DNA of 63,945 nt, filler included, from Caldilineae bacterium (GCA_037446815.1; 7 parts of 7 records of this genome joined end to end with filler, not necessarily neighbours in it); one strand, 5' to 3'. Counted from the whole stretch's first letter, positions 7,497 through 63,945 are shown. Numbers and translations are program-made. The notes: generated from the sequence alone by a model not told the origin.

Positions 7497-7670
7497 GACT
7501 CGGTTCCATCTTGTGTTGGTCTGCCCCGCACGCCGCCTCCCCGCTCTGTCATGCTGAGCCGAAGGCGATACGCCCTCGCCTTTCGGGAGAGGGCTGGGGT
7601 GAGGGGCGAGATTCTTCGCTCTCCGTCGCTCAGAATGACAGTAGATGCCAACAGACTTTAGAACCGAATT
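7497..7670. mobile_element. MITE-like element, cargo variant 2
   Basis: Ends GACTCGGTTCCATCTTGTGTTGG ... CCAACAGACTTTAGAACCGAATT; flanked by CCATCGCGC / CCATCACGC (9 bp, 1 mismatch). Confidence 0.75.
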
Positions 7671-7745
7671 CCATCACGCACGCCCGCAACGATTTCCGGC
7701 CACGCGGGTTATGATATTCAAGAACACTTACTTAGGAGGAAACCC

Positions 7746-7961
7746 ATGGACTTCGTCGGTTTCATGAGCAGCACCGCAGGCCGCGCGTTGCGCATCGTAG
7801 TGGGCCTCATCCTTATTGTGCTCGCACTGTTCGGCCCCAATTGGAGCACAGCCCTTGAGATCGTTCTGCTCATTCTGGGGATCTTCTTTGTCCTCGTCGG
7901 CGCGCTCAATCTGTGCGTGCTCGCCCCCCTGTTCGGCAAACCGATCAAGGGCGGAAAGTAG
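7746..7961 (+). CDS. DUF2892/YgaP-like small membrane protein
   Basis: Two hydrophobic helices, 'RALRIVVG', Cys after TM2; AGGAGG RBS. Confidence 0.75.
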   Translation: MDFVGFMSSTAGRALRIVVGLILIVLALFGPNWSTALEIVLLILGIFFVLVGALNLCVLAPLFGKPIKGGK

Positions 7962-8030
7962 CAGGCCACATCCTAACCCACCGCGCTCAAACGACCACTG
8001 CTCCCAACCCATGGCCCGGCCCGCGCCGGG

Positions 8031-8669
8031 TCACTCTTCTGGCCGCGCCATGCCCCGGAGGAGCCACACCAGTTCGCCCAAGATGACCGCCGTAGCCCCC
8101 CACACCTTGTGCCCATGTATCAAGAAATATGGCACATGAAGATGACGGCCATCGGGCAAGTCCCAGTCCTCCTCATGCCGAATCCGCTCATCCAGCAGCA
8201 TCCCTAGCGGCGTCTCCAGCACCTCGGCCACCTCCTGCGGATTTGGCGAGAACGCTGGTCTGGCCTCCAGGTATCCCACGAACGGGAATACCTGAAAATC
8301 GCTTACTGCAACGTAGAGCGGAGTGAGGTTCCCAAGAATCTGAACCTTATCCGTCGCGGTGCCGATTTCCTCGCCGGTTTCGCGCAGCGCGGTGCGCTCC
8401 AGGCTCTCCAATCCTTGGCGCGCCCCTCCCGGCAGCGAGACCTGGCCCTGGTGCGTCGCAACGGCGTTCGTGCGCAGGGTCAACGGGAAACACCACCCGG
8501 CGTCGGTGGGGTACAGCAGCACCAGCACAGCCGCCAAGTGCGGCTCGTGGTCGGCATCCATCGGACGCGGCTGCGGCGCCATCCAGAGTTGGGCACGCCG
8601 CCCAGGCAAGGGCAACTGCAATGCGCGGCGCAGATCTTCCAGCGAGGGCCACAGATTCGGCGCGGCCAT
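8031..8669 (-). CDS. Nudix CoA pyrophosphatase (PCD1/NudL family)
   Basis: HQGQVSLPGG, Nudix box ALRETGEEIG, VWGATA. Confidence 0.88.
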   Translation of the reverse strand: MAAPNLWPSLEDLRRALQLPLPGRRAQLWMAPQPRPMDADHEPHLAAVLVLLYPTDAGWCFPLTLRTNAVATHQGQVSLPGGARQGLESLERTALRETGEEIGTATDKVQILGNLTPLYVAVSDFQVFPFVGYLEARPAFSPNPQEVAEVLETPLGMLLDERIRHEEDWDLPDGRHLHVPYFLIHGHKVWGATAVILGELVWLLRGMARPEE

Positions 8670-8673
8670 GTCC

Positions 8674-9879
8674 CTACTCCCACACGATGCCACAGAACGA
8701 AACGAAGGACGCTCCTTCGGAGTCGGCGGGCGCATGGTCATACGCGACAACGTGCCCGGTAACCGGCCCCAGCAGTCGCAGTGCGAGGTAGATGGGAGGA
8801 AGTCCGCAGATGTGCCGTCGGTCTCCCTCCTCGCGGATGAGGGCAAGAAAGCCTTCTGCATCGCCCTGGCACATGCGCGTCATGAGCGCCTCATCGGCCT
8901 TCTTCCCCAGCGCACGCTGCACCAAACCCGCGGGCAGTGAATCCCCAAAGGCGGGCCCCGTGTGCGCCAAATCGGCAGCCGCAATGACTATCGCACGGCG
9001 GCCCTCAAGCGCGCGACGCAACGCCTCTATGCCCGCGGCGATCACTTCATCCCGTTGCGCGCATTCCTGGCCAGAGATGAAGCGCTCAAAGGAGCCGCTC
9101 AGGATGGGAACCACCGGACACGGCTTCCCATCCCTCACGTAGTGCAGCCACACCGCCGCCAGTTCCACCGAGTGCTCGTTCCGATGGTGAATCTCATCGC
9201 GAAACGCCCATTCGCGCCCAATAGCAGCGGCCACGGCATCAACGATCTCCGTGGCCGTAGGCAGCACGCTGAAGGGCGTGGCGTAGTTCTGCCGCGTCAG
9301 GGTAAACGGCCAGAAGTCGCCCATGTGATCGGTGCCGAATATGACGGCAACCTCCGCGTGGCGCACAGCGTCTGCCGCCGCGGTCCACACCTTGCCATAC
9401 ACCGCGCCGCCGCGCATGTAGTCAATATGCGGCGAGACAAGGCCCCTGGCGTTCGAGAACCGAGGCACGTCCCCCACAGCCGCGCAGGAACGCTGCAACA
9501 TCTCCCGCAGCGCCGCCGCATCCGCGGGGTACCCGCTGCCCGCCGAGGCCGGGGGGCGAAACGGAGCGGCGCGATACGCTTCCAGGGCGGCCCTCAGCGC
9601 CTCGGCCGACCGCTCATTCTCCAAAAGCAGCGCCTCGTCCAGTTGGCGCAGGATTGTAGCAAGCACGTCAGGCGGAACGCGCACGCCTGCGCGGATTTCC
9701 AGCGCCGCACGCAAGGCGCTCTCGTCCCTCGTGCCATCGCACAGCGCAAGCAACGGCGCGAGGGCCTGAGGCATCGCCAGTACCTTGTCGCTAAGCGCAA
9801 GTGGATCGCGGAGCACCAGCACCGGACGCCCATTCTGTTGTGCCCACTGGGGCTGGATTTGGCGCAACTTCGGTCGCAT
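8674..9879 (-). CDS. MEMO1 family (AmmeMemoRadiSam protein B) with N-terminal extension
   Basis: PHIDY, GTDH, EHSVEL, AADLAHTG, ICG motifs; the ORF-track extension overlaps tRNA-Glu and was trimmed to MRPKLR. Confidence 0.85.
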   Translation of the reverse strand: MRPKLRQIQPQWAQQNGRPVLVLRDPLALSDKVLAMPQALAPLLALCDGTRDESALRAALEIRAGVRVPPDVLATILRQLDEALLLENERSAEALRAALEAYRAAPFRPPASAGSGYPADAAALREMLQRSCAAVGDVPRFSNARGLVSPHIDYMRGGAVYGKVWTAAADAVRHAEVAVIFGTDHMGDFWPFTLTRQNYATPFSVLPTATEIVDAVAAAIGREWAFRDEIHHRNEHSVELAAVWLHYVRDGKPCPVVPILSGSFERFISGQECAQRDEVIAAGIEALRRALEGRRAIVIAAADLAHTGPAFGDSLPAGLVQRALGKKADEALMTRMCQGDAEGFLALIREEGDRRHICGLPPIYLALRLLGPVTGHVVAYDHAPADSEGASFVSFCGIVWE

Positions 9880-9935
9880 CCACCATCCTCGCGGGATCCC
9901 CAAATAAGCAAAAGCCCCGACCGTGCGGGGCTTCC

Positions 9936-10012
9936 TGGTAGCGCATGGGGGATTCGAACCCCCGATCTCCTCCTTGAGAGGGAGGTGTCCTAGGCCGCTA
10001 GACGAATGCGCC
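9936..10012 (-). tRNA. tRNA-Glu (CTC)
   Basis: Reverse complement GGCGCATTCGTCTAGCGGCCTAGGACACCTCCCTCTCAAGGAGGAGATCGGGGGTTCGAATCCCCCATGCGCTACCA folds as a cloverleaf with encoded CCA. Confidence 0.95.
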
Positions 10013-10022
10013 ACACACGGCC

Positions 10023-10051
10023 ATTCTATTGGGAAGGCCCCTTTCTGTCAA
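10023..10051 (-). promoter_or_regulatory. sigma70 promoter of tRNA-Glu
   Basis: TTGACA-17 bp-TAGAAT on the minus strand. Confidence 0.75.
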
Positions 10052-10066
10052 ATTGAGCCGCCGAAC

Positions 10067-10077
10067 GACTCGGTTCC
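10067..10077. mobile_element. MITE terminal repeat truncated by the contig end
   Basis: GACTCGGTTCC immediately before the N linker. Confidence 0.55.
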
Positions 10078-10177
10078 NNNNNNNNNNNNNNNNNNNNNNN
10101 NNNNNNNNNNNNNNNNNNNNNTTAATTAATTAANNNNNNNNNNNNNNNNNNNNNNNNNNNNNNNNNNNNNNNNNNNN
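10078..10177. other. Artificial contig linker
   Basis: N-run / TTAATTAATTAA / N-run, 100 nt. Confidence 0.98.
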
Positions 10178-10260
10178 AACGTGCGACGCATCTCGGAGGT
10201 GCGTCTCACGTGAAGACACGCCCCCTCGCCCGCGGCGCGGGAGAGGGCTGGGGTGAGGGA
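10178..10260. repeat. REP-like palindromes
   Basis: ACGTGCGACGCATCTCGGAGGTGCGTCTCACGT hairpin (related copies at ~40045 and ~63897) plus a CCCTC...GGGAGAGGGCTGGGGTGAGGG unit. Confidence 0.75.
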
Positions 10261-10336
10261 GGCCCTCCGCGTTTCGCTTGCGCGCCGCCGCCCTTTGTAG
10301 TACACTGCGGCCATCGGCAACACTGGGAGGAGCGCG

Positions 10337-10837
10337 ATGAACATCCTGGACCTGGAGCCCCTACGGCACATTCGCCAGAACCATGCGTTGGAGCATGCGA
10401 CCATTCACCTGCTCACCCGCGGCGACCCTTCGCGCCACTTCGTGGGCAGGAGCACGCCGCGCGGCTTCTACATCTACGGCGACGTGGACACGCAGGCGGT
10501 GGCCGACGCCGTGTCCGAGGCGCTGGCGCGGCTGCGGGCCGGGGAAAGCCAACTCGCCATCCACCCGCGCTGCGGGACCGGCGTCGCCACCACCGGCATT
10601 CTCGCCGGGCTGGCCGCCTTCGCCACGCTGGGCCTGCGCCGCAAGCGCCGCCTGGCCGACCTGCCCGCCGTCATCACGGCGACAACCCTGGCCGCGCTGG
10701 TGGCCCAACCGCTGGGTCTCGCCGTCCAGCAGCGGGTAACCACCGACCCCGACCTGGAGGGCGTGCGCATTGCGCGCGTGGAACGGCTGGAATCGGGCCG
10801 ACTGGTGGCGCACCGTATCATCCTGGAACGGGATTGA
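10337..10837 (+). CDS. Conserved hypothetical membrane protein (DUF6391-like)
   Basis: RQNHALEHAT, STPRGFYIYG, LAIHPRCGT, two TM segments. Confidence 0.7.
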   Translation: MNILDLEPLRHIRQNHALEHATIHLLTRGDPSRHFVGRSTPRGFYIYGDVDTQAVADAVSEALARLRAGESQLAIHPRCGTGVATTGILAGLAAFATLGLRRKRRLADLPAVITATTLAALVAQPLGLAVQQRVTTDPDLEGVRIARVERLESGRLVAHRIILERD

Positions 10838-10839
10838 GC

Positions 10840-11886
10840 ATGTTCTACATCCTTGACGGCGACGACGACTTCTCGCGCGACGAGGCCCTTGCCGCGCTGA
10901 AGGCCAAACTCGGCCCGGCGGACATCCTCAGCCTGAACACGACTGTCTTTGACGGCGCGTCGGTCTCGCTGGATCAACTGCGCCATGCCTGCGACAGCAT
11001 CCCGTTCTTCGGCGACGCGCGCCTTGTCGTGGTCCAGGGCCTGCTCACGCGCCTTCACGCCTCGGGCCGCAAGAAAGCGGGGGCCGCCCAGGGGGAGGAC
11101 GACGAAACCGAAGAGCCCGTCGCCGCCGGGCAGAAGGAATACCGCGCGCGGCTGTTGGAGTACCTTCCCTCGCTGCCGCCGACGACGCACCTGGTGTTCC
11201 TGGAGCCTGCGCTCCTGCCGGCCAAAAGCCCCTTCGTCGCGCTCCTCGCGCAGCACCCCGAGCGAGGCCGCCGTCAAGCCTTCTCCCTGCCCAATCCAAG
11301 AAGCGCCGACGGCCAAGCCGAACTGGCGGCATGGATACGCGCCCGCGCCCAGGCCAAAGGCGCGCGCATAGACCCGGCGGCCGTGGCCGCGCTCATTGAC
11401 CTCATCGGAAACGACCTGCGCCTGCTGGATTCCGAACTGGAGAAACTGGCCGCTTACTCCGCCCAGGGCACCATCACCCTCAAGGACGTGCGGGACCTGG
11501 TGCCCCTGGCGCGGGAGGCGGTCGTGTGGGACCTGATAGACGCCATCGCGCAGAAGCGTCTGGGCGCTGCGATGGACGTCCTGCGGCGGCTCCTCAACGA
11601 GGGCGAGCCCGCGCTCCGCATCTTCGGCCTGATGGTGAGCGAGTATCGCCTGCTCATCCAGGCCAAGACACTAGCAGACGAGGGCTACTCCGAGGATCGC
11701 ATCGCCAGCAGGCTTGGGGCCCATCCTTGGCGGCTCCGTCAGCGGATGGACGCCGTGCGCCGCACGCCCGCGGAGGGGCTGAAGGCCACGTACCGCCTGC
11801 TGCTGCAAACCGACACGGAGATGAAAACGGGGGTGCAGGAGCCAGAGGCCGCGCTGGAGTTCCTGGTCGCGCGCCTGTGCCGCTAA
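10840..11886 (+). CDS. holA: DNA polymerase III subunit delta
   Basis: MFYILDGDDDF, SIPFFGDARLVVV, ELEKLAAY, DTEMKTG. Confidence 0.9.
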   Translation: MFYILDGDDDFSRDEALAALKAKLGPADILSLNTTVFDGASVSLDQLRHACDSIPFFGDARLVVVQGLLTRLHASGRKKAGAAQGEDDETEEPVAAGQKEYRARLLEYLPSLPPTTHLVFLEPALLPAKSPFVALLAQHPERGRRQAFSLPNPRSADGQAELAAWIRARAQAKGARIDPAAVAALIDLIGNDLRLLDSELEKLAAYSAQGTITLKDVRDLVPLAREAVVWDLIDAIAQKRLGAAMDVLRRLLNEGEPALRIFGLMVSEYRLLIQAKTLADEGYSEDRIASRLGAHPWRLRQRMDAVRRTPAEGLKATYRLLLQTDTEMKTGVQEPEAALEFLVARLCR

Positions 11887-11900
11887 CGCGCCGAGGCGAC

Positions 11901-11940
11901 AAAAAGCGGGAGCGGAGCCAGCCCCGCGCCCCGCTCCCGG
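11901..11940 (-). terminator. Terminator closing the SOS-boxed operon
   Basis: Minus-strand hairpin CGGGAGCGGGGC...GCTCCGCTCCCG followed by CTTTTT. Confidence 0.7.
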
Positions 11941-11952
11941 AACCATCGCGGC

Positions 11953-12198
11953 CTACGCCGCGCGGTTCTGCGACTCCTCATCGTATCCGACCCACACATG
12001 ATTGCGCAGAATGTTGGACGCGGCCAACACGCGGACTCCCTCAAGCGCCAACGCGCGCCCGTTCAGGTCGGCCGGATGAATGTAGCACGTGTTGGGCGCG
12101 CGCCCGAACTTCTCGCGGTACCGATCCATCGCCTCGCGCACCCGCTGTTCCAGCGCCTTCTTGGGGTCGTTGTCATACCACAGCAAGCCGATTCTCAT
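11953..12198 (-). CDS. Small hypothetical protein (81 aa), last gene of the SOS-boxed operon
   Basis: GGAGG RBS; ATGA overlap with the upstream gene; sequence MRIGLLWYDND...NHVWVG. Confidence 0.8.
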   Translation of the reverse strand: MRIGLLWYDNDPKKALEQRVREAMDRYREKFGRAPNTCYIHPADLNGRALALEGVRVLAASNILRNHVWVGYDEESQNRAA

Positions 12199-12557
12199 AG
12201 CACACCTCCGCGCCGTCCGGGATCAATGGACACGGTGTCTTCGTCGCCGATGAGCGTGAATGCCCGCTGGCCGTCGCCGCCATAGTTGGCGGGGGGCAGG
12301 TAGGGCGCCCGCATCGGCTGGGTCTGCCCGCTGCCCGTTACCACGATGACGGGCGGGTACGCGGCCTGCCGGCGTTCTTCTTCCTTCTTGTCGCGCCGCC
12401 CCAGGAACAGCAGTATGATGAGCACCATGGGGATGCTGGCCGCCACGCCCAGCACCACCCCCACGACCACCCCCATCGCTTCGGTGGACATGCGGTTGCC
12501 GATAACCACCCCCAGCCCGGCCAGGAATACGGCCGCCAAGAACCAGAGTTTCTTCAC
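12195..12557 (-). CDS. Hypothetical 2-TM membrane protein with Pro-rich tail
   Basis: Two hydrophobic segments, then RRDKKEEERR and YPPVIVV; AGGAGG RBS. Confidence 0.8.
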   Translation of the reverse strand: MKKLWFLAAVFLAGLGVVIGNRMSTEAMGVVVGVVLGVAASIPMVLIILLFLGRRDKKEEERRQAAYPPVIVVTGSGQTQPMRAPYLPPANYGGDGQRAFTLIGDEDTVSIDPGRRGGVL

Positions 12558-12588
12558 GGGATCAACCTCCTAACCGACGAGTTCAGAT

Positions 12589-13695
12589 TCAGGATTGCCT
12601 GGTCAGCCCGTTGGCTACGCGCTCAACCAAGCGCGGGACAAAGCCATCAGACTGCCCGCCGCCTGCGAGGAGCCGAATCTGCGGCCTGGCAGGCTCCTGC
12701 GCCGCGAGGCGCGCGATTTCGGGCAGGGAGATGTACGCGCCCTGAAGGCGGATCACCTGCCCTTTCGCCACCACGAGAAAGTCGCCCCGGCCCAGCAGGC
12801 GCTCGGCTCCGGTGCCCGCGATGCCCGTGGCCACCTTGGCGTCCTCCGGGCTGGTAACGCTGCCCACAACGCGCACCGGGAAGTTGCTCTTCACCAGCGA
12901 GCCGATGACGGCGGCGGTGGGCTTCTGCGTGCAGGCCACCACGTGGATGCCGGCTCCCCGCCCCCGCTGCACCAGCCGCGTGATGGCGTCCTCCAGCGGC
13001 TTGCCGCCCACCGACACCAGGTCGGCCAGTTCGTCAATGAACACGGCCACGCGGGGCAGTTCGCACCCTTCGGCGTCGCGCCGCTCCATCTCGGCCACGA
13101 GCCGCTGCAGGACGGTCAGGGCGTCATCGGTTCGGCGCACCACCGGGCACAGCAAATGCGGCAACTCCGAGAACGGGCCGAATCCGCGCCACTTGGGGTC
13201 AATGAGCACCATCTGGAGCGCCGACTGGCGGTTGAACAGCGCCAGGGATGCGATCATGGCGCGGGCCAGTTCCGTCTTACCGCTGCCGGTGGTGCCGGCG
13301 ATGAGCACGTGGGCCACGTCCGGGCTAGATAGCCGCAGGAGCAGGGGCGCGCCCCGCTCGTCCAGGCCCAGGACGGCCGTGTGCGGCGGTACGCGCTCCA
13401 GCCGCGCGCACAGGGGCAGCAGGTGCACCACATCGCCCCGCTCCCTCGGAACCTCCACGTGCACCTCGCCATTCTGGCGGAACACGCGGCACGAGGGCAC
13501 GCCCAGCGAAAGCGCCAACTCCTCGGCCAGGCCCGCAACCTGCCGCACCTTCGCGCCCATGGGCAGCGATAGCCGAAAGCGGACAAATCGCGGCGTTACC
13601 ACCCCGCCGCTGACCCTTGTCGGCAGGCGGTGGCTATACAGGACCTCCTCAATTCGGTCCGCCTGATAGTTGAGCACTTGCTGAAAGGCGCTCAC
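12589..13695 (-). CDS. Stand-alone FtsK/SpoIIIE motor domain (no TM region, no gamma domain)
   Basis: Walker A AGTTGSGKT, LIDPK, Walker B FIDELAD, RGRGAGIH, NFPVR, GAERLLGRGDFL; only 368 aa. Confidence 0.9.
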   Translation of the reverse strand: MSAFQQVLNYQADRIEEVLYSHRLPTRVSGGVVTPRFVRFRLSLPMGAKVRQVAGLAEELALSLGVPSCRVFRQNGEVHVEVPRERGDVVHLLPLCARLERVPPHTAVLGLDERGAPLLLRLSSPDVAHVLIAGTTGSGKTELARAMIASLALFNRQSALQMVLIDPKWRGFGPFSELPHLLCPVVRRTDDALTVLQRLVAEMERRDAEGCELPRVAVFIDELADLVSVGGKPLEDAITRLVQRGRGAGIHVVACTQKPTAAVIGSLVKSNFPVRVVGSVTSPEDAKVATGIAGTGAERLLGRGDFLVVAKGQVIRLQGAYISLPEIARLAAQEPARPQIRLLAGGGQSDGFVPRLVERVANGLTRQS

Positions 13696-13710
13696 GGCTC
13701 ACCTCCCGCG

Positions 13711-14103
13711 TTACGACACCGCCGCCACCGGCTGCGGGAACACCAGGATGTTGCCCGCCCGCGCCGCAGGTTCCGCCTCCTCAGCGACTCGGCACGTCCG
13801 CGCCGAGCACGCCAGGCACTGGCTCACGCTCTGGACGGGCGCCACCTTCAGCGCGCAGGCCGCCGTATGAAAGCGCACCGCAGGTGGGTCGTTGTTCCAC
13901 ACCTCCACCCGCCCCGTGGCGTAGCGCACCACGATGGGGCTGGGTTCGGTCTTCGCCAGCGTGAACCGCAGATGGTCGCACCCCGCCTGGCGCGCAGGGC
14001 ACGCGCGGCACAGGTTCGGCGAGACCTCGCGGTCGCCCTCGCGAATCTTCTGGCAGATGATGCGCCCGTCTTTGTCCACCGAACGATGCTGACAGACTGT
14101 CAT
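13711..14103 (-). CDS. Cys-rich hypothetical protein (130 aa, possibly metal-binding)
   Basis: Start MTVCQH after AGGAGG; 9 Cys including CRAC, CDH and CLAC. Confidence 0.75.
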   Translation of the reverse strand: MTVCQHRSVDKDGRIICQKIREGDREVSPNLCRACPARQAGCDHLRFTLAKTEPSPIVVRYATGRVEVWNNDPPAVRFHTAACALKVAPVQSVSQCLACSARTCRVAEEAEPAARAGNILVFPQPVAAVS

Positions 14104-14123
14104 GATTCCCCTCCTAAACCTGC

Positions 14124-14768: not shown

Positions 14769-14792
14769 GCACCTCCTGACCGACAACAAATA

Positions 14793-14839
14793 GAACGCCT
14801 GTTCTAGCCTATTATACTAGAACATGCGTTCTATGTCAA
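14793..14839 (-). promoter_or_regulatory. Consensus sigma70 promoter with two SOS boxes
   Basis: TTGACA (14834-39)-17 bp-TATAAT (14811-16); GAACGCCTGTTC at 14793-804 and GAACATGCGTTC at 14820-31. Confidence 0.9.
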
Positions 14840-14871: not shown

Positions 14872-15516
14872 TTAAGCGACGCGATCCAGGCGGCGGATGA
14901 CGAGCACGACCTTGCCCTGAATCTCCACGTTGGCGGGGTGCACGTAGATGGGCTCCATGGTGGGGTTAGCGGGCTGCAGGCGCACGCGGTCGCGCTCCCG
15001 ATAGAAGCGCTTCAGGGTCGTTTCCTTCTCGTCCTTGAGCCACACGGCCACCAAATCCCCGTTCTGCGCCTCCTTCTGGTGGCGCATGATGACCAGGTCG
15101 CCATCGTGGATGAGGGCATCCACCATGGAGTTGCCACGAACCTCCAGGGCGTACAAGCCGCGCTCGTCGCTGATGATGTCCCGCGTGAGTTCTACGACCT
15201 CATCCTCGCCCAGCATGGCGAAGTCACTGTCGGGGATGGGCACGGGCGCGCTGGCGACGATGACGCCGACGATGGGGATGCGCACGGGAGCCGCGCGCGG
15301 CGTCTCTACTCCGGCCAGTTGGATGCCGCGGGAGATGTCCCGACTGCGGGTGATGTACCCCTGGCGCTCCAGGATGTTCAGGTTGTAGTTGACAACGGAC
15401 GTGGAGGAGATGCCAACGGCCTGGGCGATTTCGCGAATCGTGGGCGGGCGGCGCTGCTCCGCGCTATACCGGCGGATGAACTCCAAGATGCGCTGCTGGC
15501 GTTCCGAGAGATTCAT
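14872..15516 (-). CDS. lexA: SOS repressor LexA
   Basis: LSERQQRIL, PPTIREI, STSVVNYNL, VRGNSM, TLKRF, LQPANP. Confidence 0.93.
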   Translation of the reverse strand: MNLSERQQRILEFIRRYSAEQRRPPTIREIAQAVGISSTSVVNYNLNILERQGYITRSRDISRGIQLAGVETPRAAPVRIPIVGVIVASAPVPIPDSDFAMLGEDEVVELTRDIISDERGLYALEVRGNSMVDALIHDGDLVIMRHQKEAQNGDLVAVWLKDEKETTLKRFYRERDRVRLQPANPTMEPIYVHPANVEIQGKVVLVIRRLDRVA

Positions 15517-15562
15517 GTCTGCCTCCTTTCGCAGCCTCGGGCGCTCTGCTGCTTCCGAGCAT

Positions 15563-15591
15563 ATTATACACGAACATTCGTTCTATGTCAA
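15563..15591 (-). promoter_or_regulatory. lexA promoter with SOS box
   Basis: TTGACA-17 bp-TATAAT with GAACATTCGTTC (15572-83) in the spacer. Confidence 0.9.
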
Positions 15592-15605
15592 GCCCCCGCG
15601 GGTAG

Positions 15606-15753
15606 GAGTCGGTTCATCTTGTGTTGGTGAACCGTGGGCGCACTCTCCTCGTGTGTCATTGCGAGCGAAGCGAAGCGATCGCGCCCCCGGAGATTGCTTG
15701 GGGCGCTCCGCGCCCTCGCAATGACAAATACCAACAGACTTTGGAACCGAGTC
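15606..15753. mobile_element. MITE-like element between the divergent lexA and hrcA promoters
   Basis: GAGTCGGTTC...TTGGAACCGAGTC ends; internal GTCATTGCGAG...CTCGCAATGAC inverted pair; no target duplication visible. Confidence 0.8.
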
Positions 15754-15772
15754 CCCTTCCCTTTCGCTAATC

Positions 15773-15828
15773 TTGACAAAATGGCTGTCTGGTGCTATGA
15801 TTTAGCACTCGGACAGCGAGAGTGCTAA
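15773..15828 (+). promoter_or_regulatory. hrcA promoter and CIRCE operator
   Basis: TTGACA-17 bp-TATGAT; perfect TTAGCACTC-N9-GAGTGCTAA at 15802-15828. Confidence 0.96.
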
Positions 15829-15852
15829 CACGCCTTGCTGGAGGAGATGCCC

Positions 15853-16875
15853 ATGGAACTCACAGAACGCCAGCGGATGATACTCGGTCTGGTCATCCGC
15901 GAATACATACAGAACCCCGTGCCCGTCGCGTCTAAGGTATTGGTGGAGAAGTATCCCCTGGGCATCAGCCCTGCGACGGCGCGGAACGAACTTGCCGTCC
16001 TGGAGGAGCGCGGCTACCTGACCCACCCGCACACGTCGGCGGGGCGCATCCCGACCGAGAAGGGATACCGCTACTTCGTGGAGTACCTGATGCAGCAGGT
16101 GGAACTGCCGCTGGAGGAGCGCCTCACCATCCGCCACCAGTTCTACCAGGTGCACGCCGAGATGGATCAGATGATGCGCCTGTCGGCGTCGGTGCTGGCG
16201 CGACAGACGCGGTCGGCGGCGCTGGTAACCCCGCCCCGCGCCCCTCAGAGCCGCTACAAGCATCTGGAACTCATCTCCTTGCGCGAGACGGTGGCGCTGC
16301 TCATCCTCGTGCTCCAGGGCGGGCTGGTGAAGCAGCAGGTGCTGACCCTGGACGCGCCCTACACGCAGGAGACGCTGAGCGCCATCGCGGGCAAGTTGAA
16401 CCACCTGTACGCGGGCGTTACGGTGGATCAGGTGCGGCTGGATGTCCTCGGCGCGGAGTCGCTGGAAGCGCGCGTCGCCCGCATCGTGCGCGACATCATG
16501 ACCCAGGAGGATCACCAAACGTCGCAGGGCATCTACCGCGACGGGCTTGGCTATATCCTGGAGACGCCGGAGTTCCGCGAGGCCCGTTCGCTGCGCCAGG
16601 TCGTGGATTTGCTGGAGCGCGGCATGTTCTTTGAGGAGATGCTGGCCGAGGCCATGGAGCGCGGCGGCGTTCAGGTCATCATCGGCGGGGAGGGGCGCTG
16701 GGACGAACTCGCCGATTGCAGCGTGGTGATGGCCCGCTACGGGGGCGAGTCCAGGGTGGGCGGCGCGCTGGGCGTCGTCGGCCCCACCCGCATGCCCTAC
16801 GCCCATGCCATTTCGGTGGTGCGCTACGTGGCGGAACTCATGGGCGACCTGATGTACGAGTGGTATGGATACTAG
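15853..16875 (+). CDS. hrcA: Heat-inducible transcription repressor HrcA
   Basis: SPATARNEL, HPHTSAGRIPTEKGYRYFV, GPTRMPY; CIRCE upstream. Confidence 0.96.
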   Translation: MELTERQRMILGLVIREYIQNPVPVASKVLVEKYPLGISPATARNELAVLEERGYLTHPHTSAGRIPTEKGYRYFVEYLMQQVELPLEERLTIRHQFYQVHAEMDQMMRLSASVLARQTRSAALVTPPRAPQSRYKHLELISLRETVALLILVLQGGLVKQQVLTLDAPYTQETLSAIAGKLNHLYAGVTVDQVRLDVLGAESLEARVARIVRDIMTQEDHQTSQGIYRDGLGYILETPEFREARSLRQVVDLLERGMFFEEMLAEAMERGGVQVIIGGEGRWDELADCSVVMARYGGESRVGGALGVVGPTRMPYAHAISVVRYVAELMGDLMYEWYGY

Positions 16876-16877: not shown

Positions 16878-17265
16878 GCGGGCACACGGGCAACCGGCTG
16901 GTCGCCCCTGCATGCTGGCAATGACGCAACGGCCGAGTCGGTTCCATCTTGTGTTGGTGAACCGTGGGCGCACTCTCCTCGTGTGTCATTGCGAGCGAAG
17001 CGAAGCAATCCCGCGCCCCGGAGATTGCTTCGGGCACTGCGTGCCCTCGCAATGACGGGTGCCAACAGAATTTGGAACCGAATCCAACGGCCCTGTCGTT
17101 CTGAGCGGCGAGGGGCGAAGAATCTCACGCCCGCGGGCACACGGGCGACCGGTCGGTCGCCCCTACGCGCTCGCAATGGCCTGGTTACTTGAGTGGCGAG
17201 GGGCGAAGAATCTCGCGCCCGCGGGCACACGGGCGACCGGTCGGTCGCCCCTACATGCTCGCAAG
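16878..17265. repeat. Composite REP cluster with embedded MITE
   Basis: Three copies of GCGGGCACACGGGC(G/A)ACCGG(T/C)(C/T)GGTCGCCCCT(A/G)C and two of GGCGAGGGGCGAAGAATCTC. Confidence 0.8.
16935..17084. mobile_element. MITE-like element with 8-bp target site duplication
   Basis: CAACGGCC|GAGTCGGTTCCA...TGGAACCGAATC|CAACGGCC. Confidence 0.85.
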
Positions 17266-20000: not shown

Positions 20001-20044
20001 TGCGGGCGGGGCAGGCGTGTGGCCGCGCGGGGCCAACCCCCCGC

Positions 20045-20144
20045 TGTCATTCTGAGCGGCGAAGCCGCGAAGAATCTCGGTACGCGAGGTTGCTTCGCTT
20101 CGCTCGCAATGACACACGAGGAGAGTGTCCATGCGTTTCACCAA
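20045..20144. repeat. REP/MITE-internal sequence truncated by the contig end
   Basis: GTCATTCTGAGCGGCGAAGCCGCGAAGAATCTC and CTCGCAATGACACACGAGGAGAGTG. Confidence 0.75.
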
Positions 20145-30232: not shown

Positions 30233-30315
30233 CGCCGTCGCCGCAACTTGCCACGGGGTGTGGTGTTTCCCGAATAAACACGCCACGCGAATCTTCTTGA
30301 CGGAGGGACGCAATC

Positions 30316-39861: not shown

Positions 39862-40183
39862 GAGAGGGCTGGGGTGAGGGGAAAGTCCCTCGTTCCCCCT
39901 CTCCGCTGGCGGAGAGGCACATGCGCGGAGGCGCGCGGTGTCGCCGGAGTCTAGAGCCTCGGGCTGAGCGCATGAAGCCTTGCGGGCTCGGCTCCCTCAG
40001 CGCGGGGGTTTAGCCCCGCGCGGTATGCGGCGCGGAGAGGGCTACGTGCGACCCACCTCGGAGGTACGTCGCATGTTGTACCCCGTCCGTCACTGCGGGC
40101 GAAGCGAATCAACCTTTCGGCTCAACAGGAGCCCATGAAGAGAGGAATGCTGTAGAATCGGCCCGACCGGCCGGGCGGCGCGC

Positions 40184-54935: not shown

Positions 54936-54950
54936 TCGCGTGCCCCTCGG

Positions 54951-55894: not shown

Positions 55895-58804
<2,910 letters not shown>

Positions 58805-58892
58805 GATACTCCGATTGTGAACCAGGATTGCCAGCGCCGCTATTATACCACAGGTGGAAACAGGGGGCGAAACGGCGCGGTTGCGGGATTTG

Positions 58893-58992
58893 NNNNNNNN
58901 NNNNNNNNNNNNNNNNNNNNNNNNNNNNNNNNNNNNTTAATTAATTAANNNNNNNNNNNNNNNNNNNNNNNNNNNNNNNNNNNNNNNNNNNN
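58893..58992. other. Artificial contig linker
   Basis: N / TTAATTAATTAA / N. Confidence 0.98.
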
Positions 58993-59046
58993 CGACACAC
59001 GAGGAGAGTGCCCTTGCGTTTCACCAACACAAGATGAAACCGAGTC
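58993..59046. mobile_element. MITE end (reverse orientation, truncated)
   Basis: ...TCACCAACACAAGATGAAACCGAGTC. Confidence 0.75.
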
Positions 59047-59061
59047 CGGTCGCGCATTCCG

Positions 59062-59091
59062 TTGACGGCGGAGTGCGTCGTGTGGTACAAT
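59062..59091 (+). promoter_or_regulatory. sigma70 promoter of the hybrid kinase gene
   Basis: TTGACG-18 bp-TACAAT with extended TG. Confidence 0.65.
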
Positions 59092-59117
59092 AATGGCAGG
59101 CAAACCGAGCGGGTGCG

Positions 59118-62100
59118 ATGTCTCCTGTACGTGTCCTACTGATAGACGATAACCCAGAGAACCGTCTCACAGCCATCCAGGAGTTGGCGCGGGAGTTTCC
59201 AGACCTACTGCCGGTGGAAGCGGAGGATGAGGCTTCGTTTCAGGCTGCGCTGGACGGGGAGCGCGCCGATCTCGTCGTCGCCAAGAACCAAATGGCGTGG
59301 GCCACAGGTCCCGATATCTTCCGCCAGGCGCGCGAACGATGGCCCGATGTCCCCGTCATCCTATTCACCGGCACCGAAGAAACAGCCGCAGAAGGCGCGA
59401 AGCAGGGGGCAGGGGGCCTTGCAGCAGAAGCCCCTACCGAGTTCCGCTGGCTTGCCGTTGCCGCCCGCGCCGCCTGGGAGAGCAGCCGAGAGCGCAGGCA
59501 GGCCCTTCAGTTGGAACAGCGCTACCGCCTGCTGGTGGATACCATGCCGGCGGTCGTGTACATGGCGGGCCCCGACCTCCGCCTGCGGTACGTCAGCCCC
59601 TACGTTCGGCAGTTGCTCGGTTTCAGCCCCGATGAGTTGCTGGGCAAGAACCCCTTTGACCTCGCCCCTCGCGAAGACCGCAGGGACCTCGTCGGAAAAC
59701 TTCGCACGGCGCTGCGGACGCGCCAGCCCTTTGTCCTAGAGCACCGCGTGCTCGCAGCGGACGGCTCCGAGCGATGGGTGCGGAACATCGGCACCGTTCC
59801 GGAAAGCCCCGACTTGCAGCGCCCTGTGATTCAGGGCGTGGCCCTGGACATCACCGACAGCGTGCGCGCTGAGTGGCGGCAAGCGGCAGTTTCCGACGTG
59901 AGCCGCGCGTTGGCCGAACTCCTCCCCGGCCAGCGGCTGCAGGGCGCGCTCGCCGCGCTGCAACGGCACATCCCGTTTTCCGTCGGCGTCCTGGGCGCCT
60001 GGCCGATGGGGCACGTGGCCCACGTCCCGGAGGAGGGCGAGGCCCTGGCGGGCTGCCTACGGGTTGCGGCCGATGTGTACGGCCCGAAGATGGACCGCGT
60101 GCCGCAGGACAGCGCCCTGGGCTTGGCGCTCTCGCTGCGCGCGCCGGTCGTCCAGAACGACACCCTCGCCAACGCCTACGCCGAAGACGCGGCGATGGCC
60201 GAAAGCGGCATCCGAAGCCTCCTCGCGTATCCCCTCATCCTGCGCGACGATTTGCGGGCGGCGCTGATCCTGTTCGCCGAAAGCGCCCATGTGTTCAACG
60301 ATACCCACCTTGACCTTCTGGATCAACTGGCCCCTGTCCTGTCGGCGGGCGTGGAGTCGTATCTCCACTGGCAGGCGTTGCAAGAACTCAATGCGGCGCT
60401 GGAAGCGCGCGTGCAGGAACGCACCGCCCAGATACAGGCGCTGTACGACCTATCCCAGCGGCTGGGGTACAGCCTGCGCCCCGACGACCTCTTCGCCGCC
60501 ATCGCCCAGCACCTGCTGGCCATAGGCAACGTGGAGGTGGCCGCGGTGGCCATCCCGCAAGCGGGCGTGGGAGCGCCCCTCGTAACCGTGCACGCGGAAC
60601 GCCCCCTGGCCGATTCCCTGGCGCGGACGCTGATGGAAGAGACCTGCCACCAATTGGGGGGACGGTTTGAGGAGTGCTCCCAGGCTGCGAACCTGCGGCA
60701 TAGCCTTGAGGTGAAGGTGAAGAATCCCCACGCGCCGATGCTGGAGCGGTTGGGCGACGTGCTTGTGGAACCCGTGGAAGCAGCGGGGGCACGCCTGGGC
60801 GGCATTGGCATCGCCTGCGAGGCCGAGGGCGTCCTCGGCGATGACCATCGCCGATTGCTGCGCGCGGTGGCCGGATTGCTCTCCAACACGCTTCAGCGCA
60901 TTCAGGCGCTGGCCCAGGCCGAGCGAACTCGGATGGAAGAAGCCATGGACGCCATGCATGAGGGGGTCTTGTTGCTGGACGACCACGATCGCCTTGTTGC
61001 GACCAACCCGTCGGCGCGACGCCTCCTTCCGCTGCTGGGCGTCGCCGACCTGCGCGAGGGGGACGTTCTGCGCGAACTCTGCGGGTTCTCGCTGGACGAC
61101 CTGCGCGCCCGCACCCGCGAGGCAGGCCCGTCCGAATGCGCCATCGGCGACAGGGAACCCCGTCTCATCGTGCAGTTGTCCGCCGTTTCCTACACGACCC
61201 CCACCGGCGCCACGGGCACCGTGCTGACCCTCCACGATAGCACCGAACAGCATCAGGCGCGCGTGCGGATGGAGCAGCAGGCCCGCCTGGCGGCGCTGGG
61301 GCAACTGGCCGGCGGCATCGCCCACGACTTCAACAACATCTTGACGACCCTCATCGGCCTGGCCCAACTGAACCTGGGCACGCCCGGCCTTTCGCCGGAA
61401 CTTCGCGCCGACCTGGAGCAAATCGTGCAGCAGGGGCAACGGGCCGCCCGCCTGGTGCAGCAGATTCTGGACTTCGGGCGGCGCTCCATGTCCCAGAAGA
61501 CCTCGCTGCGGCTGGACGCCTTCCTGCGCGAGGTGATCCATCTCCTGCGGCGCACCATCCCGGAGACCATCGCCATCCAGACGGACTTCCCGCCCGACGA
61601 TTACACCATCTTCGCCGACAGCACGCAGATTCAGCAACTCGTCATGAATCTGGTATCCAACTCCTGCGACGCCATGCCCCAGGGCGGCCTCCTGACCTTC
61701 CGGCTGCGCCGCATCGCCACGGATCCCGCGCTGTTGGCTCGCTATCCGATGATGAAGCCGGGCGCCTATGTGCACCTGCGCCTGGAAGATACCGGCCACG
61801 GGATGCCCCCCGAGGTGCTGGCCCACGCCTTTGAGCCGTTCTTCACGACAAAGGGCGTGGGCAAGGGCACCGGCCTGGGCCTGGCGCAGGCCTATGGCAT
61901 CGTGAAGCAACATGGCGGGTACATCTTTCTGGAAAGCCAGCCCGACATGGGAACCCAGGCGCTCATCTACCTACCGGCCCAGGGCGAACAAGCCGAGCCG
62001 CGCACCCCCGCCCCGCCGTCCTACCATCGGGGAGAGGGCCAGACCATTCTGGTCGCAGAGGACGAGGAGATGGTGCGCGAACTGGTAGAGCGGATGCTGG

Positions 62101-62441
62101 GGCGGTTGGGATACCGGGCGATCCCGGCGCGCAACGGGGCCGAGGCGTTTCGTCTGTTCCAGGACAACGCCGACGAGATTTTCGCCGTCGTGGCCGATAT
62201 GATCATGCCTCGGATGAGCGGGCTGGAACTGTTTGAGCGCATGCGCGAAATCAACCCCACCCTGCCCGTGATTCTGACCACCGGCTACGCCGACGACGAA
62301 GAGGTGGAGAGCCTGCGCAGGCAAGGGCTGCACGGCGTGCTCCAGAAACCCTTCCGCATGGCGGAGTTAGCAGCCCTCCTGGAGTCAATCCCCGCCAGGC
62401 CGCGGCCCGCCGATGAGGGCAGCGCGCCCGCTACACGTTGA
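59118..62441 (+). CDS. Hybrid sensor histidine kinase (REC-PAS-GAF-GAF-PAS-HisKA-HATPase-REC)
   Basis: [36 protein letters not shown]-terminal DMIMP...KPF. Confidence 0.92.
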
Positions 62442-63513
62442 AACGAATGTTCAGGATGTCCCCATCCTGCACCACGTAGTCGCGCCCCTGTAGCCGCACC
62501 AGGCCGCGCTGCTTCGCCTCGGCCAGCGACCCCGCGGCGATGAGGTCATCGTAGGCGACAACCTCCGCGCGGATGAACCCGCGAGCCAGGTCTGTGTGGA
62601 TGGCCGCTGCCGCCTGCACCGCCGTGTCGCCCTTGCGGATGGTCCACGCCCGCACCTCGTCCTCGCCCACGGTAAAGAAGGACTGCAAGCCGAGTAGATC
62701 GTACGAAAGGCGAATCATGCGCCGCAAACTCGGCTCCGAGATGCCGTACTCGGTCAGGAACAGTTCCGCGGCCTCGGCATCCAACTGCGCGATTTCCTTT
62801 TCCAGCGCGCCGCGCAGGGCGATGACGGCCGAGCGCTTGTGCGGATATGTCAGGATCGCCGAAGGGTCGGCCGGGCCATCGTCCCCCACATTGAGCACCA
62901 CCAGCACCGGCTTCAGGGTCAGGAGCGCGAACCCCCGGACCTGGCGCTCCTCGTCGGGCGTAAGGTCCAAATCGCGCAGGGGAATCTCGTTCTCCAGCGC
63001 CTGTTTGAATCGCTCCATGAGCGCCATCTCCGCGCGGGCCGTCTCGCCGACGGGGCCGCTCCGCCGGGCGTCCTTCTCCAGGCGCTCCAGGCGGCGCTCC
63101 ACAACGCCCAGGTCCGAGAGGATGAGTTCCACGTCCAGGTCGTGCAGGTCGCGGACGGGATCCACCTTGCCCCGCGCGTGGGGAACCGAGTCATCCTGAA
63201 AGGCGCGCACGACGTGCAGGAGCGCGTCGTTGGCCGCGATGGCGTTGAGCAGGGGGCCGGAGAACCCGCCGGATTTGCCCGCGCCTGGCACCAGCCCCGC
63301 GATGTCGTTGTACTGCACGCGGGCGCGCGTAACCTTGCGCGGCCGAAACATGGCGGCCAGGCGGTCCACGCGCGGGTCGGGCACGTCCACCACCGCCGAG
63401 TGAACCTCAAATTGCCCCGACGAGAACGGCGTCGTCTCCACGTTCTCCCGCGTGAGGGCGTCAAAGATGGTTGTCTTGGAACTGTTGGGCAGGCCGATGA
63501 TGCCGATCTGCAT
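62431..63513 (-). CDS. ychF: YchF/OLA1 ATPase
   Basis: GLPNSSKTT, DIAGLV, FFTVGEDEVRAW, IHTDLARGFIRAE. Confidence 0.92.
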   Translation of the reverse strand: MQIGIIGLPNSSKTTIFDALTRENVETTPFSSGQFEVHSAVVDVPDPRVDRLAAMFRPRKVTRARVQYNDIAGLVPGAGKSGGFSGPLLNAIAANDALLHVVRAFQDDSVPHARGKVDPVRDLHDLDVELILSDLGVVERRLERLEKDARRSGPVGETARAEMALMERFKQALENEIPLRDLDLTPDEERQVRGFALLTLKPVLVVLNVGDDGPADPSAILTYPHKRSAVIALRGALEKEIAQLDAEAAELFLTEYGISEPSLRRMIRLSYDLLGLQSFFTVGEDEVRAWTIRKGDTAVQAAAAIHTDLARGFIRAEVVAYDDLIAAGSLAEAKQRGLVRLQGRDYVVQDGDILNIRFNV

Positions 63514-63628
63514 GTGAACTGAACTCCCCGAGAAACCCGTGAGTCGCGGGCAAGAGATAAGCGGCGCAAGCGCCGCCGGGCCTATTGTATCACGCCTGCC
63601 GCGAGATTCAAAAATGGGGCGATTGACC

Positions 63629-63778
63629 GATTCGGTTCCAAAGTCTGTTGGTGGCTGTCATTGCGAGGGCGCAGAGCGCCCGAAGCAATCCCCGGGGCGT
63701 GCGATTGCTTCGCTTCGCTCGCAATGACACGCGAGGAGAGTGTGTCTGCGGTTCACCAACACAGTTTGGAACCGACTC
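63629..63778. mobile_element. MITE-like element with 9-bp target duplication
   Basis: CGATTGACC|GATTCGGTTCCA...TGGAACCGACTC|CGATTGACC. Confidence 0.85.
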
Positions 63779-63787
63779 CGATTGACC

Positions 63788-63945
63788 GATTCGGTTCCAA
63801 AGTCTGTTGGCATCTACCGTCATTCTGAGCGGCGAAGCCGCGAAGAATCTCGCTGCCCGAGATGCTTCGCCTTCGGCTCAGCATGACAGGGGGAGAACGT
63901 GCGACGCACCTCGGAGGTGCGTCGCACGTGGACCCTCACCCCGGC
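63788..63945. mobile_element. Second tandem MITE (cargo variant 2), truncated by the window end
   Basis: Begins GATTCGGTTCCAAAGTCTGTTGG; interior resembles the reverse complement of 7497-7670. Confidence 0.75.

Follow-up and report, generated by a model that had tools for sequence, protein, structure and literature searches.

Miniature transposons placed about 15 bp upstream of sigma70-type promoters in an Anaerolineae genome and their relation to a 1.5-kb insertion sequence

MITE copies of the window

The window, which is the whole stretch of DNA analysed (63,945 nt), is made up of seven contigs from an Anaerolineae MAG of 3.19 Mb, with 100-N spacers between them. An earlier note on this DNA described a promoter-targeting MITE family in a member of the Chloroflexota, and the host indeed belongs to this phylum (class Anaerolineae). 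The repeated end motif of the note, GANTCGGTTCCA-N5-TGTTGG, is real: at up to three mismatches it occurs 10 times in the window compared to 0.15 expected, none of 100 shuffles reached 10, and an element profile finds 8 non-redundant copies. A further TIR starts at 10067..10077 (+ strand), where contig C109 stops after 11 bases of the MITE end. The gene names used for the window are borne out by Pfam.

The complete copies include: (i) a 174-bp subfamily member with a different interior palindrome at 7497..7670 (- strand; found by motif and profile, profile span 7497-7669), which is placed between a terminator hairpin and the promoter of the next gene, (ii) a 150-bp copy between hrcA and grpE at 16935..17084 (- strand; sequence and profile), and (iii) a 150-bp copy near ychF at 63629..63778 (+ strand; sequence and profile). 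Each of the three is bordered by the target duplication that had been claimed for it: CCATC[G/A]CGC, with one mismatch between the left form CCATCGCGC (7488..7496) and the right form CCATCACGC (7671-7679); the 8-bp CAACGGCC (16927-16934 and 17085-17092); and the 9-bp CGATTGACC (63620-63628 and 63779-63787). A 148-bp copy, one TIR of which has lost 1 bp, resides between the divergent lexA and hrcA genes at 15606..15753 (- strand; profile and Pfam); no target duplication was found at its flanks, which are on separate contigs in 4/4 congeners.

The other four copies are partial because contig ends cut them: 20044..20144 (profile positions 27-131, end of contig C110), 30108..30232 (positions 26-150, start of contig C112), 58994..59046 (positions 98-150, start of contig C199) and 63788..63945 (profile span 63788-63909), all on the + strand. 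The whole and partial copies listed earlier are thus present, but the partial ones are truncations of the assembly and not products of decay. The copy at 63788 stands in tandem to that at 63629, carries the interior of the other subfamily and has the duplicated 9-mer in common with it.

All six -35 distances given in the note, as well as its 39 bp to a TATGAT box, match a recount by hand. The tRNA-Glu promoter (10023..10051, - strand) has its -35 TTGACA (10046-10051) 15 bp from the MITE end and its -10 TAGAAT (10023-10028) after a spacer of 17. On one side of the 15606 copy, the lexA promoter (15563..15591, - strand) has its -35 TTGACA (15586-15591) at 14 bp, its -10 TATAAT at 15563-15568 and a LexA box in the spacer; on the opposite side, the hrcA promoter (15773..15801, + strand) has its -35 TTGACA (15773-15778) at 19 bp and its -10 TATGAT at 15796-15801. 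The hexamer TTGCCA (30248-30253), followed by a weak -10 and located upstream of plsY, begins 15 bp past the 30108 copy and is the neighbour of this copy, not of that at 16935. The same 15 bp separates the 58994 copy from the -35 TTGACG (59062-59067) that, with the -10 TACAAT (59086-59091), precedes a gene for a hybrid histidine kinase. The ychF promoter (- strand; -35 at 63606-63611, -10 at 63584-63589) is 17 bp from the left end of the 63629 copy, and the distance from the end of the 7497 copy to the -10 TATGAT of its neighbouring promoter is 39 bp.

Family anatomy and genome-wide spread

The MITE family is non-coding, with a modal length of 150 bp, and is spread over about 400 loci, which make up 1.6% of the genome. 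The 687 end motifs of the genome form 217 plus/minus pairs, most often 150 bp (125 pairs), 151 bp (33) or 175 bp (13) in length, and the element profile gives 446 non-redundant matches that cover 52,415 bases; 182 of these are full length, while 93 of the 264 partial matches adjoin contig ends. An element end is present at 176/530 contig ends and, thus, the family accounts for fragmentation of the assembly. Among the long end pairs and unpaired internal ends of this genome, the longer variants consist of other small palindromic repeats stacked together and contain no genes.

The termini are 23-bp imperfect inverted repeats of a left type (GAnTCGGTTCCAAAGTCTGTTGG) and a right type (GAGTCGGTTTCATCTTGTGTTGG), in short form GAnTCGGTTCCA...TGTTGG, the consensus sequences of which agree at 17/23 positions. 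The ends are sharp, as conservation is at background level on either side of the stretch from base 1 to base 150. The interior forms a hairpin, and the fold of the element is a strong one (z of -5.8 and -6.5). In related genomes, the interior module is also found alone, as tandem arrays. The 150-bp copies have a median identity of 92.7% to their consensus; therefore, the burst was not recent.

By the gene calls of a crude caller of our own, 1.2% of the element bases fall within predicted coding sequence, compared to 80% of the genome. Occupied intergenic regions are 76/224 of the divergent, 100/1491 of the tandem and 14/299 of the convergent type.

Target duplication, empty sites and tandem arrays

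The target duplication of the family is 8 bp, rather than the approximately 9 bp previously proposed: it is exact in 79/204 copies (0.02 expected) and has at most one mismatch in 119/204 (0.3 expected). A sequence preference was looked for in the duplicated 8-mer, and none was seen. These exact duplications, together with the sharp 23-bp ends, bear out the earlier reading that the family is a non-autonomous transposon bounded by TIRs and flanked by duplicated target sites.

The orthologous sites compared were those of the 7497 and 16935 copies, and the empty sites that the earlier note had called for are present in related genomes. The 7497 site is empty in 4/4 congeners, and the intergenic region of the 16935 site measures 62-80 bp in congeners G001-G003 compared to 462-471 bp here. 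At the ychF site, the contig ends inside the array in the comparison with congeners. Among sequencing runs, no RNA data set was listed as containing the sequence, and the four DNA data sets that were listed are contigs with shares of up to 0.24. The contigs of one related strain are interrupted within the MITE at this position, and two others diverge at the left edge of the MITE. These metagenome contigs show neither an empty nor a filled site, and no usable joint of element ends was seen in them.

Adjacent elements are separated by exactly 8 bp at 34/49 junctions, and the spacer is usually identical to one of the outer duplications. Arrays with the same 8-bp duplication are what repeated hits on one promoter predict; the tandem pair had been taken as repeated use of one target, and the junctions agree with this.

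Parent insertion sequence and transposase

A transposase flanked by the same TIRs was not found in this genome; such elements are instead present in other Anaerolineae, where a single ORF lies between end pairs spaced 1520-1548 bp. This 1.52-1.55-kb element has both MITE end types in an unchanged left/right arrangement and perfect 8-bp duplications at 12 of its copies. The link between MITE and enzyme rests on the ends and duplication size in these other genera, since the parent transposase was not found in the genus (0/5 genomes, namely this genome and four congeners). Genes matching PF00872, ISKra4 (NF033572) or PF06782 were likewise not found in this genome, a MAG that is 93.6% complete and of a kind from which repeats are often unassembled. 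Control genomes were equally blank in the PF06782 search, which makes its negative result a weak one. ISKra4 matches are absent from all five genomes of the genus. The canonical IS256 elements of congeners G001 and G002 were considered as parents and rejected, as they are without MITE ends.

The parent transposase (427-428 aa) has an N-terminal four-cysteine zinc ribbon and a C255-x2-H258 motif. The predicted catalytic residues D171, D234 and E354, as well as H258, do not vary among 17 sequences with identities as low as 28%; D92, in the N-terminal part, is invariant too. PF00872 matches the parent transposases at 24.4 and 36.0 bits (cut-off 21) and is precomputed for most of the 120 homologues listed. 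The IS256 model is the best NCBIfam match at 38-42 bits (38 and 42.5), which is below its cut-off of 150, and the ISH6 model scores 29-38 bits. By contrast, PF06782, which we take to represent ISLre2-type transposases, and the ISKra4 model (NF033572) give no match at E 0.1. While a search of the PDB by sequence gave no meaningful match, the structure model (pLDDT 89.8) has the ISCth4 transposase (6xg8_A) as its best solved match (E 4.8e-9, TM 0.53/0.56, 369 columns). On profile scores and modelled fold, the parent transposase is assigned to the prokaryotic Mutator/IS256-like type, as an apparently unnamed branch. The Mutator-type classification of the earlier note is thus retained, while its narrower placement in the ISLre2/TnGBS group is not, given the lack of a PF06782 or ISKra4 match, the IS256 and ISH6 scores and the ISCth4-like fold.

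A parent among the ISLre2/TnGBS or ISKra4-group elements (p-MULT 3 or 4) is an alternative for the MITE, although an improbable one. The habit is the same: for these groups, Guerillot 2014 (PMC3942029) describes duplications of 8-9 bp and an insertion point that lies 15-17 bp upstream of the -35. ISKra4-type genes are also common in the class (past cut-off in 30/301 genomes and at E 0.001 in 123/301), and ISKra4 ends (GGGTGCGTTTCAT..GAGTTGA) loosely resemble those of the MITE. However, 0/30 ISKra4 loci from the class have MITE ends in flanking position (up to 5 mismatches); these loci have ends of their own that start GGGTG/GGGCG and duplications of mostly 9 bp. ISKra4 matches were not found in the five genomes of the genus, nor was PF06782 in this genome, the one in which it was sought. 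The elements with exact MITE ends encode a protein that matches neither model at E 0.1, and a comparison of this protein to 11 local ISKra4-like proteins is weak (hhalign probability 42%).

Distance to promoters

The MITE lands almost exactly 15 bp upstream of sigma70-type promoters, genome-wide and far beyond chance. This distance was determined with an outward two-box scorer (TTGACA-N17-TATAAT) on 304 clean flanks (155 left-end and 149 right-end); 232/399 loci, truncated or irregular, lie outside the evaluation. Across all 304 flanks, information content peaks only at positions 16-18 and 39-44; TTG is at positions 16-18 in 81 flanks, in 50 of which TAnnnT follows after a 17-bp spacer. An outward promoter is scored in 121/304 flanks, compared to 8 when the flanks are reversed and 11 when they are reverse-complemented, with no peak in either control. 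In 74 of the 121 promoters, the -35 begins at position 16; the starts at positions 15, 17 and 18 number 11, 15 and 5, so that 105 are at positions 15-18, in agreement with the proposed aim of about 15 bp upstream of the -35. Counted by locus, a promoter is present in 91/147 compared to 38/10,000 random intergenic flanks. The remaining 56/147 evaluable loci have no promoter at positions 14-18 by the two-box scorer, the 16935 copy among them. A same-direction gene is downstream of 100/103 of the promoters counted by locus, at a median of 50 bp. A hybrid promoter, formed from a TTGGAA 7 bp inside the element tip, was also considered and dropped, because a -10 signal is lacking from positions 11-16 of the flanks.

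Insertion is not oriented, in contrast to that of TnGBS/ISLre2. The 91 loci with a promoter have it at the left end only (39), the right end only (40) or both ends (12), and the promoter is present in 40/155 left-end and 41/149 right-end flanks; both orientations are, therefore, equally common.

An outward promoter is also present in 41/81 distinct flanks of the parent element, compared to 3 and 4 in two controls. Relatives in other genera are 3-9 bp (mode 5) from the -35, versus 15 bp here. The spacing rule is thus lineage-specific.

Random or merely intergenic insertion, followed by selection for promoters that work or are helped, is a still less probable source of the fixed distance. Selection alone would also give near-absence from coding sequence, and copies as old as these (92.7% to consensus) have allowed it time. 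A -35 at exactly position 16 in 74/121 promoters is, however, a single-base precision beyond selection; almost no promoters are found at positions 20-40, where insertion would be at least as harmless, the convergent intergenic regions are the safest and yet the least occupied (14/299), and tandem arrays reuse one 8-mer. Least credible of all is a resident promoter-associated repeat (a regulator site or REP-like structure) that is not mobile DNA, which the strong hairpin and the solitary, tandem interior module of related genomes would suit, but which is refuted by the 8-bp duplications of unrelated sequence at 79-119/204 copies and the empty sites of congeners, while the same ends bound a transposase gene in other Anaerolineae.

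Comparison with known systems

To our knowledge, promoter-anchored transposition occurs in only a few bacterial element families; as its mechanism, the literature proposes that the initiation complex of the polymerase is contacted. According to Guerillot 2014 (PMC3942029), TnGBS, ISLre2 (p-MULT 3) and ISKra4 (p-MULT 4) insert 13-17 bp upstream of the sigmaA -35 and generate duplications of 8-9 bp; the ISKra4 group inserts in both orientations and is present in Chloroflexi; unoriented insertion is tied to ends that are 83-100% complementary; and IS256 (p-MULT 1) insertion sites are without promoter enrichment. The MITE family is similar to TnGBS, ISLre2 and ISKra4 in its prokaryotic Mutator-superfamily DDE character, fixed distance upstream of the -35 and 8-bp duplication, and to the ISKra4 group in its insertion in both orientations. 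Unlike ISLre2/TnGBS, the right end is not favoured beside the promoter, and unlike promoter-targeting ISKra4, the ends are complementary at 17/23 positions, yet insertion is unoriented. The family further differs from all three in that the parent transposase matches neither the ISLre2 nor the ISKra4 model, the form that abounds, at about 400 loci, is a non-coding derivative of 150 bp, and the relatives in other genera lie only 3-9 bp from the -35.

IS256 elements have GA...TC termini, similar to the termini found here. The parent transposase also shares with IS256 a PF00872 score above cut-off, a whole-length fold, the DDE and C-x2-H residues and 8-bp duplications, whereas it differs in its NCBIfam score (38-42 bits, cut-off 150), in the additional zinc ribbon at its N-terminus and in the promoter anchoring of the lineage, and its identity to ISCth4 (PDB 6xg8, 6xgx) is 12-14%. 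As in other IS-derived bacterial MITEs, the elements are small, non-coding, intergenic, hairpin-forming and high in copy number, and they match the parent in terminal repeats and duplication size; unlike bacterial MITEs generally, they target a promoter element with single-base precision. Among the abstracts returned by literature searches, none describes such targeting by a bacterial MITE.

Proposed mechanism

An account that joins the MITE family, the 1.5-kb parent and promoter-anchored integration is highly probable, and builds on the findings above on element structure and copy number, duplications, distance to promoters, tandem arrays, empty sites, the parent element and the class and fold of its transposase. 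The MITEs are non-autonomous DDE transposons of about 150 bp, which would derive from the 1.52-1.55-kb Anaerolineae insertion sequence and have been moved in trans by its Mutator/IS256-superfamily transposase. Integration would be anchored on sigma70/sigmaA-type promoters in either orientation, with a staggered 8-bp cut that places the element end 15 bp (range 14-17) upstream of the -35 and leaves the core promoter intact. A second hit on a promoter would use the same 8-mer and form a tandem array. The transposase itself would read the promoter, most likely via promoter-bound RNA polymerase holoenzyme, and transposition may proceed by copy-out/paste-in, by analogy to IS256-family enzymes. The family is presumably immobile now in this genome for want of transposase.

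A broader reading, more tentative and somewhat doubtful, is that a third, unnamed lineage of the Mutator/IS256 superfamily, so far only of Chloroflexota, docks on the holoenzyme and sets the -35 distance, at 15 bp here versus about one helical turn closer (3-9 bp) in other genera; promoter anchoring may then be recurrent or ancestral in the superfamily.

Implications

The habit of keeping a fixed promoter distance is already known from a few transposons; the carrier here is a different IS256-like branch. With about 400 loci at single-base precision, the family is a large natural data set on promoter-anchored transposition. The transposase has a confident structure model (pLDDT 89.8) with a fold like that of the solved IS256-family transpososome ISCth4, and the sister lineages with another spacing offer a ready comparison of 15-bp and 5-bp enzymes. 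The copies also mark sigma70-type promoters in the genome of an uncultured member of the Anaerolineae. If the third-lineage reading is true, promoter anchoring would not be peculiar to TnGBS, ISLre2 and ISKra4, and the element positions would map more than 100 working promoters in an uncultured phylum.

Genome-wide targeting of promoters

The source genome is an Anaerolineae (Chloroflexota) metagenome-assembled genome of 3.19 Mb (265 contigs, 65% G+C) in which the ends of the MITE, a non-autonomous element of ~150 bp, are found 687 times at up to three mismatches. These end motifs pair in plus/minus orientation 217 times, with lengths that include 150 bp (n = 125), 151 bp (n = 33) and 175 bp (n = 13). 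A profile search yields 446 non-redundant matches that cover 52,415 bases (1.6% of the genome) and group by place into 399 loci; 182 matches are full length and 264 are partial, with 93 of the latter abutting contig ends. An element end lies within 300 bp of the contig end at 176 of the 530 contig ends. Sequence conservation ends sharply at the first G and last C of the element, copies of exactly 150 bp (n = 118) have a median identity to the consensus of 92.7%, and the predicted fold is a single long hairpin (z of -5.8 and -6.5). The two main subfamilies have their ends in common but differ in their interior palindromes. One interior palindrome, GTCATTGCGAG...CTCGCAATGAC (window 16986-17058), is also a repeat by itself: without the MITE ends, it recurs in tandem every ~81-83 bp in related genomes (e.g., G004:C110:7656-8377). 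Other small palindromic repeat families occur in intergenic DNA (window 17102-17264; 10178-10224, 40043-40089 and 63896-63942) and are also stacked within longer MITE variants.

Predicted coding sequence, as delimited by a purpose-made simple gene caller, holds 1.2% of element bases versus 80% of the genome, and by the same caller elements occupy 76 of 224 divergent, 100 of 1491 tandem and 14 of 299 convergent intergenic regions. When flank positions are counted outward from the element end, such that a -35 starting at position 16 leaves 15 bp between the two, 81 of 304 clean flanks (left 40/155, right 41/149) carry TTG at positions 16-18, and in 50 of these 81 the -35 is separated from a TAnnnT by a spacer of exactly 17 bp. 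Information content across all 304 flanks is raised only at positions 16-18 and 39-44. A two-box scorer detects a promoter in 121 of the 304, with the -35 starting at position 16 (n = 74), 15 (n = 11), 17 (n = 15) or 18 (n = 5); as controls, the flanks give 8 promoters when reversed and 11 when reverse-complemented, with no peak in either. Counted by locus, with 232 truncated or irregular loci and 20 too near a contig end left out, a promoter is present on at least one side of 91 of 147 evaluable loci, compared to 38 of 10,000 random intergenic flanks. Downstream of 100 of the 103 promoters in this count is a gene transcribed outward from the element, with a median distance of 50 bp. Selection acting on insertions, rather than targeting, might be held to fix the promoter distance; however, the distance is precise to a single base, convergent regions are poorly occupied and no signal is found farther upstream, all of which argue against selection. 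Targeting of promoters, which the earlier note had read from the window, is thus borne out across the genome by the flank peak and by the per-locus count against controls.

Copies within the window

The window (63,945 bases) consists of contigs C109, C110, C111, C112, C114, C115 and C199, with 100-N runs at the contig joins and one N run within C111 (10078-10177, 20145-20244, 27292-27391, 30007-30106, 39762-39861, 49413-49512 and 58893-58992); because the contigs are simply joined, their order across the N runs carries no meaning. The end motif occurs 10 times versus 0.15 expected, and the element profile matches eight copies and an 11-base stub that closes C109. The copies earlier described as partial are present, but for several the label reflects only the contig ends that cut them; these copies end where they do because the MITE repeat breaks assembly. 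Pfam confirms how the neighboring genes were named, and a hand recount agrees with the first reading of the distance from element to -35-like hexamer at tRNA-Glu (15 bp), lexA (14 bp), hrcA (19 bp), plsY (15 bp), the kinase (15 bp) and ychF (17 bp), with the 39 bp between the 7497 copy and its TATGAT, and with the letters of three target duplications. The pair at 63629/63788 is, as proposed, a tandem array that reuses one target, and is one of several such arrays in the genome.

The MITE at 15606-15753 has lexA and hrcA (14872-16875) on either side, and a LexA box, CGAACATTCGTTC (15571-15583), lies between the -35 and -10 of lexA. This copy is without a target duplication, and its two flanks are on separate contigs in all four same-genus genomes (congeners); the lexA-hrcA junction may have arisen by rearrangement through the MITE or may be an assembly error at this repeat. 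Elsewhere in the window, a tRNA-Sec gene (2765-2863; Rfam 69.9 bits) indicates that the organism probably uses selenocysteine, and a long run of imperfect, GTNGCC-like repeats (248-1230; spacing of 6, 12 and 18 bases) probably codes for a low-complexity repeat protein.

Mobility and tandem arrays

The MITE family is mobile DNA. Of 204 copies, 79 lie between exact 8-bp direct repeats (permuted flanks predict 0.02) and 119 between 8-bp repeats with at most a single mismatch (0.3 predicted); repeats of 7, 9 and 10 bp are found at only 4, 2 and 1 copies. The duplicated 8-mer has no consensus. An empty orthologous site, which had been suggested as a check, is found at the 7497 locus, where the flanks adjoin without the element in 4/4 congeners; at the 16935 locus, the hrcA-grpE gap is 62-80 bp in three congeners versus 462-471 bp here. 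Junctions between neighboring elements (n = 49) are 8 bp in 34 cases, 7 bp in 6 and 9 bp in 5, and the spacer is usually identical to the 8-mer of an outer duplication. Promoter-anchored integration predicts such arrays: a first hit leaves the same 15 bp in front of the promoter, so that a second would be expected to cut at that 8-mer again.

Parent element and transposase

A search of the source genome detects no PF06782, ISKra4-type or PF00872 gene. Of 301 genomes of the class, 30 have the end motif, with counts of 552 in the source genome, 4-38 in its congeners (n = 4) and 8-88 in six genomes from other families. Several genomes also have end pairs spaced by 1520-1548 bp, with one ORF of 427-428 aa between them. 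This parent element has an AAAGT-type end upstream of the gene and an ATCTT-type end downstream, an asymmetry identical to that of the MITE, and perfect 8-bp duplications at twelve full-length copies. The MITE is a trans-mobilised miniature of this IS256-like element.

The parent transposase passes PF00872 (24.4 and 36.0 bits; cut-off 21), scores 38-42 bits on the IS256 model, for which the cut-off is 150, and reaches 29-38 bits on ISH6; at E 0.1, neither the ISKra4 nor the PF06782 model is matched. When it is compared by profile with 11 ISKra4-like proteins from the class, the probability is just 42%. The enzyme includes an N-terminal four-cysteine ribbon and residues D171, D234, H258 and E354, which are invariant among 17 sequences with identity down to 28%. 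The structure model (pLDDT 89.8) aligns over 369 columns with the transposase of ISCth4, an IS256-family element (E 4.8e-9, TM 0.53/0.56). A large protein collection includes at least 1763 family members, most of them from 1.5-kb contigs and annotated as no more than "transposase-like" or hypothetical; only 573 representatives remain at 50% clustering. Of the 301 class genomes, 15 carry the family; in the source genus the count is 0 of 5. In the segment that joins the zinc ribbon to the predicted DNA-binding helices, an aspartate (residue 92, alignment A2) is invariant down to 28% identity. Guerillot 2014 (PMC3942029) gives a conserved aspartate at a similar position as the signature of promoter-targeting enzymes.

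Spacing in other lineages

Full or partial copies of the parent in other genomes have an outward promoter in 41 of 81 distinct flanks (controls 3 and 4). The -35 begins at position 6 in 12 of these promoters, within 3-8 in 20 and within 14-18 in 10. In the Anaerolineae genome G249, loci L164-L183 are 20 mini-elements that share these ends and measure 82-110 bp, 14 of which have exact 8-bp duplications; 17 have a one-sided promoter, with the -35 starting at 4-10 in 15 of these, leaving 3-9 bp to the -35 versus 15 bp in the source genome. The -35 starts at 16-17 in a congener and two other genera (4 promoter-bearing flanks), and at 5-6 in another genus (3 promoter-bearing flanks). The spacing is thus lineage-specific, at ~15 bp here and shorter by roughly one helical turn elsewhere. 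As the near spacing class is broader, the helical-turn reading is not pressed.

Proposed mechanism and relation to known systems

Integration occurs with an 8-bp stagger at a set distance ahead of the -35, and the element may face either way. Flank conservation is confined to the two promoter boxes, which begin 15 bp and 38 bp from the cut; this suggests that the transposase recognises the promoter via a bound protein and not by DNA sequence. The duplicated 8-mer would cover the stretch from ~8 to ~15 bp before the -35, a region usually occupied by the polymerase alpha C-terminal domains. The IS256-like fold suggests that the transposase may use copy-out/paste-in chemistry.

For TnGBS, Guerillot and colleagues (PMC3942029) propose that the polymerase initiation complex is contacted. 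In published work, promoter-anchored insertion with 8-9-bp duplications is (i) oriented in TnGBS/ISLre2 and (ii) in both orientations, with near-perfect ends, in the ISKra4 group; the same authors did not find promoter enrichment for IS256-family elements, among which a relative of the present family might nevertheless be listed. Going by that account, the ISKra4 group resembles the present family in insertion behavior but differs in its ends, which are just 17/23 complementary here, and the present enzyme is nearest to IS256 and ISH6. The family is therefore kept outside ISLre2 and ISKra4. The interpretation as a MITE that targets promoters and belongs to a Mutator-type element stands in substance; the family assignment does not, as the enzyme passes PF00872 without a match to ISKra4 or PF06782, and membership of ISLre2/TnGBS is set aside. 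Promoter-anchored insertion itself was already known; the transposase lineage is new. The parent is also promoter-seeking, at a different spacing, and the family is a well-supported and striking example of a promoter-targeting MITE.
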